Assembly: GCA_023229865.1 (NCBI GenBank)
Contig: JALNYL010000004.1
Location: forward strand, 17,773 to 81,772
Source of the DNA: Minisyncoccota bacterium
Lineage (GTDB): Bacteria > Patescibacteriota > Minisyncoccia > Phycocordibacterales > UBA1550
DNA length: 64,000 nucleotides
Direction of reading: 5' to 3'
Below the pieces are notes generated by a model. That model was not told the DNA's origin. It was given only the letters and a program-made list of their open reading frames with translations, and ran no database searches. Shown here one piece after another: positions 450 through 39,922 of the stretch; position 1 is the first letter of the stretch; every line of letters begins with the position of its first letter. The translations under genes were made by a program, and so were the position numbers.

Positions 450-582
450 TATGCTCTCCTTTGGTTGTTTAAGCCTGAATTAACAGGGGACATTGCTGGG
501 GTCATATTGCCTCACGGTGGGTGAAAAGTCAAACCTGATTCGGTGTGCTACAATACATTCAACATTCGATATTCTATTCACT

Positions 583-2253
583 ATGACCCAAGACGAAGCA
601 TTTGAAATACTAAAAACAGGACGCAATGTCTTTGTGACAGGGCCTGCAGGGAGTGGGAAGACGCACCTCGTCAATCGCTACATTGCGTATCTCCGCGAGC
701 ACAATATCGATATCGGCATTACTGCGTCGACAGGGATTGCGGCTACGCACATGGGCGGCGTGACTATTCACTCGTGGGCAGGGATTGGTGTGGCGGCGCA
801 TCTCTCGCCGTACGACCTCGAGGCGATGCTTGAGAAGGGGTATCTCCATAAGCGTTTTGAAAAAGTGAAAGTGCTCATCATTGATGAGGTGTCGATGCTT
901 CACCATTTTCGTCTTGATTTGGTAAACAATGTGCTTAAAACGATGAAGCACTCATCGAAACCGTTTGGTGGTGTGCAAGTTATCTTGGTGGGAGATTTTT
1001 TCCAACTTCCGCCTATTGCGCGCATGGGAGAGCCCGAGGCGCGCTTTGTGTATGCGAGTGATGCGTGGAGGGAGGCTGGATTTACTATTTGTTATTTGTC
1101 GGAACAGTATCGTCAACAGGACGATGCGGCTATTTCAATCTTGAACGAGATTCGCGCAGGGCAAGTTTCTCCGCAGGCTCGTGCGCATTTGAAATCGCGC
1201 CACAATGTGCGATCGCCAAAGTTTACTACCTCAACAAAACTTTTTACGCACAACGCTGATGTGGATTCTTTGAATGACGACGAGCTCGATCGCATTCCTG
1301 ATAGTGAGGTCACTCAATACGAAATGACAACGCGTGGTAATGAAAAAATCGCAGCAACGCTCAAAAAGTCTTGTCTTGCCCCAGAATTTCTCCGCTTGAA
1401 ACCAGGTGCGCGTGTGATGTGTGTGAAAAACAATTTTGAAGCAGGGTATGTGAACGGCACGCTCGGCGTCGTCGTTGAGTGTGGAGAGATGGATGACCCT
1501 GTGATTCAGACTGCAAATGGAAAGACGATAACCATTTCGCGTGCATCTTGGAAGATTGAAGAGGACGGCAAGGTGAAAGCGGAGATTCTTCAATACCCAC
1601 TTCGTCTTGCGTGGGCAATCACCGTGCACAAGAGTCAGGGGATGAGCCTTGATGCAGTCGAGGTTGATCTCTCGAAATCATTTGAGCCAGGGATGGGGTA
1701 CGTGGCGCTTTCTCGTGTGCGCACGCTTGAGGGGCTCACGATTTTAGGAATCAATGAAAATGCGCTTCAGGTGCATAGCGAGGTGCGGGAACTTGATGCG
1801 GATTTCCGCGAGCTTTCGCGTGAGGCGCGGGAGAGTATGAAAAAGATTGACCCCAAAGAGCTCAAGCGTGAGCAGGAGGAATTTCTCGCGCGTTCAAAGC
1901 CACCAGAAAAAGAAAAGAAGCTTCCCACTCACAAAGAGACTGAGCTCCTTATCGCCGAGAAAAAAAGTCTCGCAGAAATTGCAGAGGCACGTGGTATGAC
2001 CGTGGAGACTATTATTTCACATATTGAAAAACTTATAGAAGAAGAGTCTCGCACATCGATGGAGTATTTGAAATTTGAAATTTCTCGTCCGCATTTTTTG
2101 AAAATAGAGAAGGCGATTGAAGAACTTCAGAAAGAGGGGAAAGTACTCCTCCTCTCTCCAATAAAAAACAAAGTCGGCCCCAATGTGTCATTTCTTCATA
2201 TCCGTCTTGCGCGAGCGCTTTTAGGGCACACACCAAAAGGCGAAGGGAAATAA
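583..2253 (+). CDS. PIF1/RecD-family ATP-dependent DNA helicase with C-terminal HTH-like domain
   Basis: Walker A GPAGSGKTH and Walker B LIIDEVSM are present, with the QLPPI motif and a C-terminal helicase/HTH region (LAEIAEARGMTVETIISHIEKL). Start chosen at the internal ATG at 583 (MTQDEAFEIL). An extended -10 TGCTACAAT lies at about 548-556. Confidence 0.7.
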   Translation: MTQDEAFEILKTGRNVFVTGPAGSGKTHLVNRYIAYLREHNIDIGITASTGIAATHMGGVTIHSWAGIGVAAHLSPYDLEAMLEKGYLHKRFEKVKVLIIDEVSMLHHFRLDLVNNVLKTMKHSSKPFGGVQVILVGDFFQLPPIARMGEPEARFVYASDAWREAGFTICYLSEQYRQQDDAAISILNEIRAGQVSPQARAHLKSRHNVRSPKFTTSTKLFTHNADVDSLNDDELDRIPDSEVTQYEMTTRGNEKIAATLKKSCLAPEFLRLKPGARVMCVKNNFEAGYVNGTLGVVVECGEMDDPVIQTANGKTITISRASWKIEEDGKVKAEILQYPLRLAWAITVHKSQGMSLDAVEVDLSKSFEPGMGYVALSRVRTLEGLTILGINENALQVHSEVRELDADFRELSREARESMKKIDPKELKREQEEFLARSKPPEKEKKLPTHKETELLIAEKKSLAEIAEARGMTVETIISHIEKLIEEESRTSMEYLKFEISRPHFLKIEKAIEELQKEGKVLLLSPIKNKVGPNVSFLHIRLARALLGHTPKGEGK

Positions 2254-8597: not shown

Positions 8598-8611
8598 AGA
8601 AACTTCGATAT

Positions 8612-8657
8612 AAAACACACCGCCCGCGATTCAGCCGAATCGCGGGCGGTGTGTTTT
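8612..8657 (+). terminator. Bidirectional terminator hairpin with GATTCAGCCGAATC core
   Basis: AAAACACACCGCCCGCGATTCAGCCGAATCGCGGGCGGTGTGTTTT, a perfect palindrome flanked by A and T runs. Confidence 0.6.
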
Positions 8658-8743
8658 TGCTATTCCCTCGGGTGTATACTATAGGTAGTGAAATATAACA
8701 GCGTGCACAGGTGTAGTAGTTTGTGTAATCCTATAAATATACA

Positions 8744-14369: not shown

Positions 14370-14380
14370 CTGGTGATAAT

Positions 14381-14427
14381 AAAAACACAGGGCCCGCGAT
14401 TCAGCCGAATCGCGGGCCCTGTGTTTT
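14381..14427 (+). terminator. Bidirectional terminator hairpin with GATTCAGCCGAATC core
   Basis: AAAAACACAGGGCCCGCGATTCAGCCGAATCGCGGGCCCTGTGTTTT. It serves the convergent genes at 13638-14369 and 14433-14924. Confidence 0.6.
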
Positions 14428-14432
14428 GCATG

Positions 14433-35283: not shown

Positions 35284-35337
35284 AAACAGACACAGGGCCC
35301 GCGATTCGGCTGAATCGCGGGCCCTGTGTCTGTTTTT
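35284..35337 (+). terminator. Bidirectional terminator hairpin, inverted version of the GATTCAGCCGAATC family
   Basis: AAACAGACACAGGGCCCGCGATTCGGCTGAATCGCGGGCCCTGTGTCTGTTTTT. Confidence 0.6.
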
Positions 35338-36447: not shown

Positions 36448-37542
36448 TTACTTCTTCTCTGTGTATGAAAGGGTCATCTTCTGATCCTTTGCATCAAAGA
36501 GGGTAATCGAGAATGAGTATGTGCGTCCGAGTTCAAGTTTCTTCTTGAGCTCTTCTTCGGTACCAAACTCTGAAACGTGTACGAGACCTGCGATCCCTTC
36601 TTCAAGAGATACGAGTGCACCGTAGTTGTTGAACTTGATAACGATACCGGTTACGGTGTCGCCCTTCTTGTAACGCTTCTCAGCATCCTTCCAAGGGTTC
36701 TCCTTGAGAGCCTTGAGTGAAAGAGAAATCTTTCCATCCTTGATCTCAATAACCTTTACGCGAACCTTTTCACCAAGTTTGAACATCTTACGTGGATCAT
36801 CTACGAGACCCCATCCGATTTCTGAGATGTGTACGAGTCCTTCGATACCATCCTCAAGCTTCACGAATACGCCGAAGTCTACGATACCTGAGATTGTACC
36901 ATCGAGTTCATCGCCGTTTGAGTACTTTCCAGAAATCTCGCGCTTCTCCTTTACTCCCTGCTCCTTCTCAGAGAAGATGAGTTTGCCTTCCTTTGGAGAT
37001 GCTCCAATGATGGTTACCGCGATACGCTTTCCAATGAGCTTCTTGAGTTCGCCAAGAATCTTATCCTTGTCGCCGTCATCGATACGTGGGTAGTGCTCGC
37101 TCTTGAGCTGTGACGCAGGAAGGAATCCCTGAATCCCTTGCCACTCGATGATGAGTCCACCCTTGTTTGCCTCCTTTACAGGAAGATCAAGAGTCTTCTT
37201 TGACTTAATAGCTTCTTCAGCTTCGCTCCAGATGATTGCCTGACGTGCCTCCTTGAGCGAGAGCTCAATGTAGCCGTCTTCGTTGTTGGTGTCGACTACC
37301 TTTGCAGTAATCGTGTCGCCAATATTGAGACGCTTGATGACGTCACGAGCGTTGATAAACTCACGTCCGTAGATAATACCCGTACCGATGGCACCGAGGT
37401 TTACGTACACACATGACTTTGCAACGCTGATAACAGGTCCCTCAACAAGTGAGTCATTCTCAGGCAATGGTTTTACATCAGCCATGAGTTTACCCATAAG
37501 TGACAATGGGGCCTCTACGATTTCTTCAATTTCTTTTTTCAT
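36448..37542 (-). CDS. rpsA: 30S ribosomal protein S1 (four S1 domains, short form)
   Basis: Repeated S1 OB-fold units (GxV...G.fV......GlvH.Se). Length 364 aa. Confidence 0.75.
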   Translation of the reverse strand: MKKEIEEIVEAPLSLMGKLMADVKPLPENDSLVEGPVISVAKSCVYVNLGAIGTGIIYGREFINARDVIKRLNIGDTITAKVVDTNNEDGYIELSLKEARQAIIWSEAEEAIKSKKTLDLPVKEANKGGLIIEWQGIQGFLPASQLKSEHYPRIDDGDKDKILGELKKLIGKRIAVTIIGASPKEGKLIFSEKEQGVKEKREISGKYSNGDELDGTISGIVDFGVFVKLEDGIEGLVHISEIGWGLVDDPRKMFKLGEKVRVKVIEIKDGKISLSLKALKENPWKDAEKRYKKGDTVTGIVIKFNNYGALVSLEEGIAGLVHVSEFGTEEELKKKLELGRTYSFSITLFDAKDQKMTLSYTEKK

Positions 37543-37740
37543 GTAACAAAAAATCCCATCAAACCTACATAATTGTAGTACAAGCGGGATGTGTGAACCT
37601 TGGTTTTCCCCCGAACGGTCGAGTCAGGATGGGGGAGGGTTAGCCTTGGAACTGCTTGTGATTAACCCGTACAATATACGGGAAATCAGGCAAAAAGTAA
37701 AGGGGGCGATTCAGCGAATCGCCCCCTTGGGGGTTGGTCG

Positions 37741-37827
37741 TTACGGGGTCGGCATTTTATCAGCCGATTTCCTTGTGGGGAGTTCGTCGTGGATTGGCCC
37801 GGGGTCATCCTCGTTGAGCGGGTACAT
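37741..37827 (-). CDS. Small ORF, 28 aa (MYPLNEDDPGPIHDELPTRKSADKMPTP), unknown function
   Basis: Excellent SD AAGGAGGT 5 nt upstream of the ATG. Followed on the minus strand by terminator hairpin GGGGGCGATTCGCTGAATCGCCCCC plus T-run (plus coords about 37697-37735). Confidence 0.4.
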   Translation of the reverse strand: MYPLNEDDPGPIHDELPTRKSADKMPTP

Positions 37828-37889
37828 ATTGAACCTCCTTGAAAATTAAAGGGCTCCGCGAGGAGCCCTTGGGTTGCGGCATTGGCCGG

Positions 37890-37940
37890 TTAGACGAAGT
37901 TGAGACCTTCGGGATTCCACGAGGGGTCGCGGGTTCTCAT
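37890..37940 (-). CDS. Small ORF, 16 aa (MRTRDPSWNPEGLNFV), unknown function
   Basis: SD AAAGGAGAA 6 nt upstream. Preceded on the minus strand by a candidate promoter (TTGCAA-16-TATGCT) and a leader of about 120 nt. Confidence 0.35.
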   Translation of the reverse strand: MRTRDPSWNPEGLNFV

Positions 37941-38059
37941 AGGCGTTCTCCTTTAAAGTACAGCTGGGTTAAGGGATTTTCTTAAAGTCACCTCACGGTG
38001 GTTTAAGGGTTCATCGGTAGACTGGATCACCATCCTTTCCCTGGGTTGAAACTAACTAA

Positions 38060-38087
38060 AGCATAGCAAAGGTAGTTAAATTTGCAA
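38060..38087 (-). promoter_or_regulatory. Candidate sigma-70 promoter (TTGCAA-16 nt-TATGCT) driving the small-ORF locus
   Basis: -35 at 38082-38087 and -10 at 38060-38065 on the minus strand. Confidence 0.35.
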
Positions 38088-38462
38088 GAACTTTACCGTA
38101 CTTGTTTCAGAAAGCCGCGCAATCTATATACATTTGCCTAGTCCACATCATGCGCCGCAATCGGACCGTATGCTTTGTAGCATCCTCGTGCTTGCGGTAG
38201 GCTGTGACTTCATCTCCGCTTGGGTCATGAATGACCCAATCCTTGTGACTGCAAGTTTCAGTGTGGCACCTGCAATAGTTCTGGCGAACATGGAACCTGC
38301 GCGGGGAGTCAGGGTCTGCTGGTAGTAATTCAAGGCTCATCTTGCTCTCCTCTTGTCTGTTAATGGTTGAATCCTTTTGCAGTCTAGCAAACTATGTTCT
38401 TACTGCAAGTTATTTTTGATAAAGAAAAACCTCGCAACATGCGCGAGGTTAAGGTAGGGGAA

Positions 38463-38525
38463 TGGAGTCCTGTACAAGAATCGAACTTATGACAGTGCTT
38501 TTCAGGGCACTTACGTTGCCACTCC
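38463..38525 (-). ncRNA. tRNA-like element (acceptor-like stem GGAGT/ACTCC, T-arm TTCGATT, encoded 3' CCA) lacking a canonical D-arm
   Basis: Minus strand GGAGTGGCAACGTAAGTGCCCTGAAAAGCACTGTCATAAGTTCGATTCTTGTACAGGACTCCA. Could not be folded as a standard tRNA by eye. Confidence 0.3.
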
Positions 38526-38629
38526 GTCAACAGGCCTTGATTCCTCCACTAGCTCTATTTTATCAAAGGGAAAGGAAAAGAAAAAGGGCCCCACGTCGTT
38601 GTGGGGCCCTGGGTTGCGGCCGGAGCCGA

Positions 38630-38680
38630 TCAGGTTGTGATCTTGATACTGTTGGTACCATCGCGGATGAAGTTCATCAT
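38630..38680 (-). CDS. Small ORF, 15-16 aa (M-MNFIRDGTNSIKITT), unknown function
   Basis: SD AAAGGAGGTGG immediately upstream. Followed by GC-rich terminator GGGGCCCCACAACGACGTGGGGCCC plus T-run (plus coords about 38586-38612). Confidence 0.35.
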   Translation of the reverse strand: MMNFIRDGTNSIKITT

Positions 38681-38758
38681 CCACCTCCTTTCTCTCTGTT
38701 GACCGGTGTGCGTCATTGTGACGCGGGGTTGATTGGCGTAGGGGCCGGCATGCTGGAG

Positions 38759-38890
38759 TTAACCGGCGCCCAGCACCATGGCCGCCAGGCCGCCGTGGGT
38801 GGTGGAATTGCCGCTGCAGCGCGTGATCAGATAGCTCTTGGTGTTGGCGCCGATCGTCGGGCCAGCAGTCGCGGGCATGGTCTTCTTCAT
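38759..38890 (-). CDS. Small protein, 43 aa (MKKTMPATAGPTIGANTKSYLITRCSGNSTTHGGLAAMVLGAG), unknown function
   Basis: Near-perfect SD TAAGGAGGT 7 nt upstream. GC-rich codons. Lies downstream of the consensus promoter at 39075-39102 and a leader of about 180 nt. The opposite-strand 182-aa ORF at 38462-39010 is probably an artefact. Confidence 0.45.
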   Translation of the reverse strand: MKKTMPATAGPTIGANTKSYLITRCSGNSTTHGGLAAMVLGAG

Positions 38891-39074
38891 GTGATACCTC
38901 CTTATGGAAAGAACAGCGTTGTCCTCCGGCAAAAGCGCGGAGGGATGGATGTCCTGGCGGGCGAATGGCGCGGCGACTTCCTCGTTAGAAACACTGGAAG
39001 CGGCCGATAAGCCCTTGCGGTCGTGGGCGAGTCAATCCCGCCACAGAGCCGTACGTGCCAACCAGAACAAAAGC

Positions 39075-39102
39075 AGTATAGCAGGTTATAAAAATTTGTC
39101 AA
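39075..39102 (-). promoter_or_regulatory. Near-consensus sigma-70 promoter (TTGACA-16 nt-TATACT) on minus strand
   Basis: -35 TTGACA at 39097-39102 and -10 TATACT at 39075-39080. Immediately flanked at 39103-39155 by a 12-bp-arm inverted repeat CCCGTTAGAGGT...ACCTCTAACGGG. Confidence 0.55.
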
Positions 39103-39292
39103 CCCCGTTAGAGGTGAATACTCGCTGCGCTTCACTCGCGACCTCTAACGGGGCTTGCCCCACAGTTTGGATTAGAACTTACGGTCGTTTACAACCTACT
39201 TCTAACGGGCCAGGCCCCGGCGATTCTGGAACCACGTGTCTTTATTGCGCCCAACGTTTCGCTCCTTTAAAAAATCTGCTACAATACCACCT

Positions 39293-39922
39293 ATGATTGT
39301 TACATATTACGGAAAGCAGTTTTTCAAGATTCAGCTCGGGGATCGCACGATTGCGTACAACCCTATTGGCAAGGATTCAAAAGAGAAAGGTTCACGCTTT
39401 GGCGCGGACATCGTCCTTTCCTCGCTTCGTCATGCAGACTTCAACGGCGCCGATCAGTGTGCGTACGGTGAGCGTCAGCCGTTCGTAATCTCTGGTCCCG
39501 GCGAATACGAAGTAGGAGGAATCTTTATTAAAGGTTTCGGTACTGACACCACATACGACAAGGATAAAAAGATCAACACAGTTTTTTCTGTAATGTTTGA
39601 AGGTATCAACCTCTGCTTCCTCGGCTCACTCGCGACCGCTGACTCACTCTCGCGCGAGGTAAAAGAAGGTCTCGGAGAAATCGACGTCCTCTTTGCCCCT
39701 ATTAGCGGGGGAGACGCACTCAATCCTGCCGACGCGCACAAACTCGCACTCGCGCTTGAGACAAAGATTGTTATTCCTATGGACTTTGAACACGCAAAGG
39801 GTTCACTCGAAACCTTTATTAAAGAAGCTGGGGCAAACGCAGAGACAATGGAGAAGTTCACATTTAAGAAGAAGGACCTCGAAGGGAAGGAGGGCGCCGT
39901 CGTTGTTCTTAAGGAGGCTTAA
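39293..39922 (+). CDS. MBL-fold metallo-hydrolase-like protein
   Basis: Beta-lactamase-fold pattern (GDRTIAYNPIG...ADIVLSSLRHADFNG...VLFAPISGGDALNPADA). TACAAT at 39277-39282 lies upstream of the ATG at 39293. Confidence 0.5.
   Translation: MIVTYYGKQFFKIQLGDRTIAYNPIGKDSKEKGSRFGADIVLSSLRHADFNGADQCAYGERQPFVISGPGEYEVGGIFIKGFGTDTTYDKDKKINTVFSVMFEGINLCFLGSLATADSLSREVKEGLGEIDVLFAPISGGDALNPADAHKLALALETKIVIPMDFEHAKGSLETFIKEAGANAETMEKFTFKKKDLEGKEGAVVVLKEA

Follow-up and report, generated by a model that had tools for sequence, protein, structure and literature searches.

Organization of the locus

A 64,000-nucleotide (nt) stretch of the Minisyncoccota bacterium assembly GCA_023229865.1 (contig JALNYL010000004.1, positions 17,773 to 81,772 of the forward strand), here called the window, carries on its minus strand a compact transcription unit located directly upstream of rpsA, the gene for ribosomal protein S1. 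This unit (37697-38090) is termed the type-A locus, and its elements are itemized in Table 1. Starting at an extended -10 promoter the predicted RNA runs through a leader into a 16-codon open reading frame (ORF1), continues as a short spacer and a terminator-like hairpin, and then forms the 28-codon ORF2, which is followed by an intrinsic terminator. All of the elements listed in a preliminary description of the sequence, including both ORFs, the hairpin and the terminator, were found on the minus strand where they had been placed. We put at about 55% the probability that the locus forms a bicistronic operon for small proteins, autonomous and strongly signalled, in an uncultivated, ultra-small Yonathbacteria-like bacterium of the candidate phyla radiation (CPR), with a leader resembling a stabilizing Shine–Dalgarno (STAB-SD) element.

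The promoter TTGCAA-16-TATGCT has its -35 hexamer at 38087-38082, a spacer of 16 nt and its -10 hexamer at 38065-38060, preceded by TG. The extended -10 (TGCTAyrCT) is invariant among six homologous leaders. TTGCAA is the weaker part of the promoter because three of the relatives (L002, L005 and L006) have no counterpart of it, and the promoter was missed by a consensus promoter scan because only 8 of 12 positions match. Transcription is predicted from the promoter to start ~7 nt past the -10, near 38053. The leader is present as described, with a length of ~113 nt from this predicted start to the ATG at 37940, rather than the ~120 nt given previously. At the other end of the unit the U-tail of the final terminator overlaps the -35 (TTTACT) of the rpsA promoter.

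Table 1. Positions of the elements of the type-A locus and of other features of the window (SD, Shine–Dalgarno sequence; MBL, metallo-beta-lactamase; pI, isoelectric point; GRAVY, grand average of hydropathy; UTR, untranslated region).
Feature	Position	Strand	Sequence	Remarks
-35-like hexamer	38082-38087	-	TTGCAA	Kept in L083; no counterpart in L002, L005, L006
Extended -10	38060-38068	-	TGcTATGCT	TGCTA..CT invariant in six homologous leaders
16S-complementary block	38024-38041	-	GGGAAAGGAUGGUGAUCC	Complementary to canonical 16S rRNA 3′ tail GGAUCACCUCCUUUCU, one bulged U
Leader hairpin	37981-38007	-	CUUAAAccaCC-GUGA-GGugacUUUAAG	GNRA-type loop; RNAalifold consensus of seven leaders
ORF1 SD	37946-37954	-	AAAGGAGAA	16S-tail duplex -9.1 kcal/mol; GGAG invariant in seven leaders
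ORF1	37890-37940	-	MRTRDPSWNPEGLNFV	16 codons; SD, frame and stop kept in relatives
Spacer	37871-37889	-	CCGGCCAAUGCCGCAACCC	Possible mini-hairpin CGGC-N4-GCCG, CAACCC motif; 95% identical to L083
Inter-ORF terminator-like hairpin	37849-37870	-	AAGGGCUCC-UCGC-GGAGCCCUU, then UAAUUUUC	9 bp; listed by terminator scan
ORF2 SD	37833-37840	-	AAGGAGGT	16S-tail duplex -12.6 kcal/mol; kept in L083, L001
ORF2	37741-37827	-	MYPLNEDDPGPIHDELPTRKSADKMPTP	28 codons; acidic, hydrophilic; pI 4.5, GRAVY -1.28
Intrinsic terminator	37700-37728	-	AAGGGGGCGAUUC-GCU-GAAUCGCCCCCUU, then UACUUUUUG	13-bp perfect stem; 86% identical in L083
rpsA promoter and 5′ UTR	37543-37700	-	TTTACT-17-TATATT	5′ UTR ~150 nt
rpsA	36448-37542	-		
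77-aa Cys/His-rich ORF	38107-38340	-		L083 ~495-735 (-)
Terminator of tRNA-like gene	38428-38450			
tRNA-like gene	38466-38536	-		L001 2959-3031, L083 837-907
Type-B cassette	38575-39105	-		Strong promoter TTGACA-16-TGcTATACT; ~180-nt GC-rich leader
Palindrome before type-B promoter	39103-39153	-		Long, perfect; L001 1960-2020, L015 3200-3262
MBL-fold gene	39293-39922	+		Divergent from the minus-strand island
CAACCCARGG sites	37867-37876, 38039-38048, 38607-38616	-	CAACCCARGG	Same sense
~40-nt palindromes	8610-8660, 14380-14430, 35285-35335		ACACAGGGCCCGCGATTCAGCCGAATCGCGGGCCCTGTGT	Near-identical

Coding potential of ORF2 and ORF1

Relatives were collected by a scan based on the S1 protein, which gave 80 loci with flanks (designated by L numbers). 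Searching these by BLAST with the type-A locus returned matches in L001 and L003 only. A scan of metagenomes with the leader pattern gave five matches, namely L083, L085 (a copy of L003) and three chance matches in coding DNA. L083, on a 784-kb metagenome contig, is a fully syntenic ortholog of the type-A locus. The adjacent MBL-fold gene provides the neutral yardstick for this comparison, with 56 of 95 four-fold degenerate sites (59%) changed between the window and L083.

ORF2 is almost certainly a protein-coding gene under purifying selection, judging from the way in which its codons differ between relatives. Codons 1-11 (MYPLNEDDPGP) show eight synonymous differences from L083, and the last six codons with the stop (DKMPTP*) show five; with no non-synonymous difference in either, the conserved blocks total 13 synonymous and 0 non-synonymous codon differences. 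In neither alternative frame would any of these differences be silent. For the conserved blocks of ORF1 and ORF2 jointly the differences are distributed 1/1/14 over the three codon positions. ORF2 of L083 has 40 codons, and the sole large indel is one of 36 nt, in frame, by which VPAWPDGDGIKG is absent from the window. The restriction to synonymous differences and the in-frame indel therefore indicate that ORF2 codes for protein. A WPDGDGI..DK.P module is found in ORF2 of both L083 and L001, where differences within the motif are synonymous only, and the ortholog in L083 was predicted by the JGI gene caller (P0001). Further afield, the last codons in L002 and L003 (..EGWED and ..EAWED) differ mainly synonymously, and in L006 and L009 the frame of the type-A ORF is preserved. 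The suggestion of small proteins made in the preliminary description is thus supported, and the reading frames are kept in relatives, so that the refuting condition set in that description does not hold. The cassette peptides are acidic and hydrophilic, with no hydrophobic segment.

Database searches place the family within a narrow group. The only homolog of ORF2 among 5.8 billion clustered proteins (word-indexed) and 1.84 billion representative proteins (exhaustive HMMER) was the L083 ortholog, and ten cassette peptides gave zero matches to Pfam and NCBIfam at E up to 10. Rfam returned nothing for 37697-38090 at the gathering threshold or at E up to 10, only tRNA reaching the threshold in the window, and the type-A cassette is likewise unmatched by Rfam in the homologous loci. 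A genome-wide search for additional SD-led micro-ORFs was too noisy for use. The locus is a lineage-restricted small-protein operon, found so far in a handful of Yonathbacteria-like genomes.

ORF1 is probably translated, as its initiation signals and frame suggest. Its counterparts are MKKHDPSWNPQGLNFV in L083, with a GTG start, and MKNQMKGITYCKPRGINKI in L001; in the window, L083 and L001 the SD, the start codon (ATG or GTG), the frame and the same TAA before CCGGCC are all kept. The window and L001 peptides have only a C-terminal P.G[LI]N.[VI] in common. The four N-terminal codons are not conserved, and the last 12 are nearly identical to those of L083 at the nucleotide level. All six four-fold sites are unchanged against L083, compared with 59% changed in the MBL-fold gene, which indicates an extra constraint at the level of the RNA. 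From the 3′ end of ORF1 the strand continues as the spacer, read as CCGGCCAATGCCGCAACCC, which carries a motif also present in the type-B cassette. The hairpin that follows has a U-rich tail (TAATTTTC) and a predicted stability of -16.7 kcal/mol; its stem is invariant and its loop variable in L083 and L001. Spacer and hairpin are 91-95% identical to L083.

The translation signals of the cassettes stand out in this genome. The 46 long ORFs of the window have a mean SD-region duplex energy of -4.3, against -4.6 for random sequence, and so as a group have no SD, whereas all four cassette ORFs and the 77-aa ORF have one (-9.1 to -17.3). In 14 of the 46 a -10-like (TATAAT-like) hexamer ends 5-10 nt before the start codon, compared with 2.3% at random positions and 0/46 in a shifted control, a rate that suggests many leaderless mRNAs. 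On this evidence the genome appears to be SD-poor and rich in leaderless genes.

The leader RNA and its complementarity to 16S rRNA

In the alignment of seven leaders, little or no variation is seen in the extended -10, in UAGUUUCAACC at the predicted 5′ end, in GGAAAGG-N-AGGUGAUCCAGUC, in the leader hairpin or in CUGUACUUUUUAGGAG before the start codon. The 5′ part of the leader is 95% identical to that of L083, where 59% of the neighbouring four-fold sites differ. Apart from one bulged base, GGAAAGG..GGUGAUCC matches the reverse complement of the canonical 16S rRNA 3′ tail (GGAUCACCUCCUUUCU); this block can pair with all 16 nt of the tail and lies 15-35 nt from the predicted 5′ end. It begins 19 nt past the conserved -10 and ends 83 nt before the ATG of ORF1, the 5′ end being predicted from the promoter.

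The duplex of the block with the 16S tail has an energy of -26.7 kcal/mol, the strongest on both strands of the window (mean -5.2, standard deviation 2.9, n=127,956). The next-best site, at -21.1 kcal/mol, is the SD of an ORF in the type-B cassette. Energies of -26.6 to -26.7 kcal/mol are also found in L083, L001, L003 and L002 at the same leader positions (15-35), even though the homologs do not agree in the bulged base (U, A or C, or no bulge) and L002 departs from the others in its 5′ half. A pairing energy that stays constant despite changes of the bulge and of the 5′ half is the pattern expected of selection for a fixed pairing partner. One of the two leaders of L005 (L005a) gives -22.1.

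Sequence inspection found no conserved start codon 4-12 nt behind the block. There is an AUG at +10 in the window and a UUG at +6 in L002 and L003, but no start codon at all in L083 and L001. An upstream ORF driven by the block was rejected, since the start codons behind it are not conserved.

Following the block, the leader forms a hairpin with a GNRA-type loop. A covariance analysis, proposed as a check in the preliminary description, was run on the seven leaders; the RNAalifold consensus leaves the 5′ part unpaired, and compensatory changes that alter both sides and keep the pair are present in 4 of the 10 pairs of the hairpin. From the window to L083, for example, a U-A pair becomes C-G and an A-U pair becomes G-U. 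A covariance model made from the leader alignment recovered only type-A cassettes in 708 kb of related DNA. On these comparative grounds the type-A leader is, independently of the ORFs that it precedes, an RNA element under conservation.

Proposed function of the leader

The scheme that follows builds on what sequence comparison demonstrates, namely the conservation of the promoter core, leader block and hairpin, the coding selection on ORF2 and the maintenance of the ORF1 frame. The extended -10 promoter would start a transcript of ~350 nt. Its first ~35 nt would present a single-stranded block able to pair with the whole 16S 3′ tail, followed by the GNRA-capped hairpin. A 30S subunit could dock on the block without initiating, in the manner of the cry3A STAB-SD, and the docked subunit would shield the 5′ end from the 5′-3′ exonuclease RNase J and keep ribosomes near the two strong SDs downstream. 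ORF1 and ORF2 would then be translated by SD-dependent initiation, although most genes here are SD-less. The inter-ORF hairpin would act as a leaky terminator that ends some of the transcripts, so that ORF1 message exceeds ORF2 message; partial termination at this point is probable from the predicted structure. The final terminator would insulate rpsA. That the block docks the 30S subunit and stabilizes the mRNA is suggested by analogy, and we hold it tentatively, at somewhat less than an even chance.

The closest known system is the cry3A STAB-SD of Bacillus thuringiensis. In this system (Agaisse & Lereclus 1996 and Mathy et al. 2007, both summarised in PMC4113751) an SD-like site close to the mRNA 5′ end, located ~125 nt before the start codon, binds the 30S subunit via the 3′ end of 16S rRNA without initiation and obstructs RNase J1. 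Both sites are SD-like and complementary to the 16S 3′ end, lie near the 5′ end (here one predicted from the promoter) some ~85-125 nt upstream of the true start codon and have no start codon (here, none that is conserved) behind them. RNase J is reported to be retained in the host group, with rnj present in at least 90% of CPR genomes and with RNase J, RNase III and PNPase as their core ribonucleases (PMC12641178); no RNase J gene was found among the large ORFs of the window. A further likeness would be that the site precedes a highly expressed gene. The differences are that the complementarity here is 15-16 nt with one bulge, against ~9 nt, and that it forms part of a longer stretch of conserved 5′ sequence, after which comes a GNRA hairpin that is conserved as well. 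In addition, the CPR host is mostly SD-less, the downstream genes are ORFs of 16-28 aa, and the function is here a predicted one. A related case is the hbs mRNA of Bacillus subtilis, for which a ribosome at a strong SD was proposed to protect from RNase J1 (PMC5737220). The two share the proposal that a ribosome bound to a very strong SD halts 5′-3′ decay, but the protecting SD of hbs is a genuine initiation site, whereas the block is separate from both true SDs. By this analogy the leader would be a new form of the STAB-SD idea, exaggerated and placed in a translational setting that is unusual.

Several points weigh against the operon with a STAB-SD-like leader. The block is weak or gone in two family members (L006, -14.9; L005b, -6.1), and its predicted accessibility is moderate, with a mean unpaired probability of 0.40-0.44. 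The 16S tail used is the canonical one, by assumption, as neither the window nor the related loci contain an rRNA gene. Conservation extends over the 15 nt upstream of the block and over ORF1 and the spacer, which a plain STAB-SD would not explain. The similarity of ORF1 to L083 is mostly at the nucleotide level and so is not on its own proof of translation. Lastly, the comparison draws on a small set, in which there are seven different leaders and no more than three close orthologs.

Annotation of small proteins is almost wholly lacking for uncultivated CPR bacteria, and ORF2 is a computationally well-supported example that comes with expression signals. Docking of 30S subunits at a non-initiating SD-like site, known so far from Bacillus, may operate in Patescibacteria in exaggerated form. 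If so, the locus would give a handle on how reduced cells pick a few messages for high expression, on the role of a conserved anti-SD tail where most genes are SD-less or leaderless, and on a hypervariable peptide island that is possibly relevant to an episymbiotic lifestyle. The general importance is limited, because the family is so far confined to a handful of genomes. A broader picture can be drawn that we consider speculative and rather unlikely as a whole. The locus would belong to an island of hypervariable tiny-peptide genes on a separate SD-dependent regime in a largely leaderless, SD-less CPR genome, in which a 16-nt 5′ ‘super-SD’ pad captures 30S subunits via the idle anti-SD tail, guards against RNase J and feeds the micro-ORFs, and acidic Trp/Asp/Gly peptides mediate interaction with a host or competitor.

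Alternative explanations

The first ~205 nt, comprising the leader, ORF1, the spacer and the hairpin, might mainly constitute a regulatory or dual-function small RNA, which pairs with other RNAs or titrates the 30S subunit or 16S tail. ORF1 would then be incidental or secondary, and ORF2 a separate gene reached by read-through. Dual-function small RNAs with tiny ORFs include SR1/SR1P, RNAIII/hld and SgrS/SgrT. The segment resembles these in being an RNA of ~200 nt that ends with a terminator hairpin and a U-rich tail, and that has nucleotide-level constraint across and beyond a tiny ORF provided with an SD and start codon. It is 82-95% identical to L083, set against the 59% of changed four-fold sites, and the unchanged four-fold sites of ORF1 (6/6) stand beside 13 synonymous changes in the 17 conserved codons of ORF2. 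The motif CAACCCARGG recurs at its 5′ end and before hairpins (see below), and the corresponding island of L015 contains promoter-RNA-terminator units with no obvious ORFs. Such a role is nevertheless unlikely, because the strong SD, start, frame and exact stop of ORF1 are kept even in L001, where most nucleotides are different, and because in family members with a single ORF the leader directly precedes a conserved peptide ORF. No target or complementary partner was found within the window, and no Rfam family matched. In contrast to the known cases there is here no known target, pairing region or chaperone, and the same transcript carries a clearly coding second ORF.

Another proposal concerns the role of the products and is compatible with the small-protein operon, namely that the peptides are precursors of secreted signals or modified peptides, similar to pheromones or to ribosomally synthesized and post-translationally modified peptides (RiPPs), and that the island is a fast-evolving locus for communication or host interaction. 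In composition they are acidic, with many W, G, D and P residues; they are short, their ends are conserved and their middles variable, and close relatives vary by indels, copy number and presence or absence. Several family members end in GWED or GWDG, which we take to resemble the ends of ComX-type Trp pheromones, as a lead only. ComX and streptide are similarly short, hydrophilic, Trp/Asp/Gly-rich peptides that vary among close strains, and some of the present peptides have a C-terminal GW[ED][DG]. Against this, no modifying enzyme, exporter or sensor co-varies with the cassettes, and the flanks are unchanged with or without them. There is no Pfam or NCBIfam precursor match even at E = 10, no signal peptide and no hydrophobic segment, and ORF2 of the window has no Trp. 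The absence of an adjacent ComQ-like or radical-SAM partner, of a precursor-family match and of a database homolog distinguishes the peptides from ComX and streptide. Composition and hypervariability are the sole positive evidence for this role, which is very unlikely.

The preliminary description also raised peptide-leader attenuation, in which ORF1 would be a regulatory leader peptide controlling the inter-ORF terminator and hence ORF2 or rpsA. The arrangement of a tiny ORF, a terminator-like hairpin and a next ORF is that of the leader-peptide attenuators of the trpL and tnaC types. The position of the ORF1 stop relative to the hairpin is conserved in three genomes, and the 3′ part of ORF1 can pair with the 5′ end of the leader or with CAACCC-GGG, which supplies the 5′ side of the hairpin. 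Yet unlike the known attenuators MRTRDPSWNPEGLNFV contains no runs of codons and no known arrest motif, there is no supported antiterminator, and no biosynthetic operon lies downstream. The alternative pairings amount to -9 to -17 kcal/mol, against -16.7 to -17.4 kcal/mol for the hairpin, with marginal p values of 0.04-0.13 against shuffles and no covariation. Neither an antiterminator nor a long-range contact between the start of the leader and the end of ORF1 was supported, the pairings being weak and short of significance although invariant. Because the stop of ORF1 lies 19 nt before the hairpin, a ribosome terminating there would fall short of it. The ‘regulated’ gene would itself be an ORF of 28 aa with a strong terminator after it, and the promoter and leader of rpsA are kept in relatives that have no cassette, so that rpsA is autonomous. 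Attenuation is thus highly improbable.

The features of a type I toxin-antitoxin system were not found. With regard to an overlapping antisense RNA gene, the sole plus-strand promoter-like site (37646-37675) loses its -10 in L083, where TACAAT becomes TTCAAT. The peptides are not hydrophobic or membrane-active in character, with GRAVY -1.0 to -1.3, pI 4.1-5.8 and no hydrophobic stretch. An antisense ORF of 86 aa on the plus strand (37589-37849) is broken by stops in L083.

The variable island and the type-B cassette

The window is bacterial chromosome, encoding ribosomal protein S1, GyrA, a DEAD-box helicase, IF-2, ClpB, ribonucleotide reductase and a DUF5667 protein. A phage origin was ruled out, with a DNA match in 0 of 50,697 phage records, and the type-A leader pattern has no match in IMG/VR. 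The S1 protein is 97% identical to that of metagenome-assembled genomes of Candidatus Paceibacterota/Yonathbacteria. Reading from the MBL-fold gene, the minus strand carries the type-B cassette, a weak tRNA-like gene, the 77-aa ORF, the type-A locus and rpsA. The flanks are the same with or without cassettes; one comprises the MBL-fold gene, a 120-aa ORF and GyrA, the other S1 and a 337-aa ORF.

The gap between the MBL-fold gene and rpsA was read in the closest 20 loci. It is a variable island of 200-2,070 nt that contains 0-4 cassettes of two types. Type A occurs in the window, L001, L002, L003, L005 (twice), L006/L010 and L009 (cut), and comprises one or two small acidic ORFs with strong SDs together with the characteristic leader and terminator. 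Type B is present in 10 loci, and the two types are distributed independently among the relatives. No other copies of the type-A leader or type-B promoter are present within the window.

The type-B cassette encodes a 43-aa peptide, MKKTMPATAGPTIGANTKSYLITRCSGNSTTHGGLAAMVLGAG, and a 16-aa ORF, MMNFIRDGTNSIKITT. Its peptide family, MKK..A.AGP...GLAG, has members of 25-45 aa in the 10 loci that are basic, whereas the type-A peptides are acidic. Seven database matches to the peptide were obtained, all annotated as ‘hypothetical’ and all from Yonathbacteria/Paceibacterota. The exact sequences of the type-B peptide and of the window S1 are not on record, and look-ups of type-B homologs returned only loci identical to L006 and L021. 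The promoter, TTGACAAAT...CTGCTATACT, differs from that of type A, TGCTATGCT, and type-B leaders contain no 16S-complementary block.

Type A had been considered a diverged duplicate of the 38.6-39.1 kb locus, the two forming one repeated regulatory element. They do have a layout in common (promoter, long leader, two SD-led ORFs and terminator), and in both GCCGCAACCC(A)AGGG follows the 16-codon ORF. Nucleotide alignment of the two confirmed a shared segment of 19 nt before the hairpin, GCCGCAACCC(A)AGGGC(T/C)CC, and nothing longer; the score of this best local alignment was reached by 8 of 300 dinucleotide shuffles. With different promoters, leaders and peptide families, and independent occurrence in relatives, descent of the two cassettes by duplication is scarcely tenable.

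The likeness noted between the inter-ORF segments is real, in that CCGCAACCCARGGSC occurs exactly twice in the window against 0.32 expected. The motif CAACCCARGG has three occurrences in the 64 kb, all within cassettes A and B, against 0.18 expected, and none of 100 shuffles attained three. One site lies at the 5′ end of the type-A leader; the others immediately precede, in each cassette, the terminator-type hairpin. The two L003 copies have the sequence CAACCAC(A)GGG. A search of the window for a partner complementary to the motif found none.

Directly before each type-B promoter there is a long perfect palindrome, found in the window, L001 and L015, whose sequence is genome-specific (Table 1). 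The promoter consensus TTGACAAATCCT....ATCTGCTATAAT is also present in four viral-classified IMG/VR contigs (L091-L094), the copy in L091 lying before a tRNA-like gene. As a cassette-specific signal the type-B promoter was therefore ruled out; since it precedes unrelated sequences in these contigs, the consensus is a generic strong promoter. The island of L015 (2990-3800) contains three units, each with a strong promoter, a GC-rich RNA of ~200 nt and a terminator. These have no obvious SD-led ORF and no Rfam match, and they are possibly small RNAs of an unknown kind.

Other features near the locus

The tRNA-like gene between the cassettes is conserved in L001 and L083. Rfam identifies it as tRNA at 35-46 bits, and ARAGORN makes no call. 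It has an anticodon loop of 8 nt (CCUGAAAA) with GAA as a possible anticodon, a G2:A71 mismatch and its own terminator.

The Cys/His-rich ORF of 77 aa comes with an SD of its own and a promoter-like site; between it and the type-A promoter there is no terminator. It is conserved in L083 only, and searches gave no Pfam or NCBIfam family and no database homolog.

The 5′ UTR and promoter of rpsA are 75-88% identical in at least 15 relatives, an identity of the 5′ UTR that far exceeds the neutral expectation, and both are also conserved in relatives that have no cassette. There is no SD ahead of the ATG and no Rfam family was matched in this region, which may be an S1 autoregulatory leader.

The final terminator of the type-A locus had been assigned to a wider family. 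The top of its stem, CGATTC...GAATCG, is indeed common to the GATTCAGCCGAATC palindromes at 8628, 14398 and 35303, and nothing further is shared, so that it is a loose member. The three palindromes themselves, ACACAGGGCCCGCGATTCAGCCGAATCGCGGGCCCTGTGT, lie at the ends of genes, flanked by runs of A and T, and resemble a bidirectional terminator present in several copies or an element of the repetitive extragenic palindromic (REP) kind.

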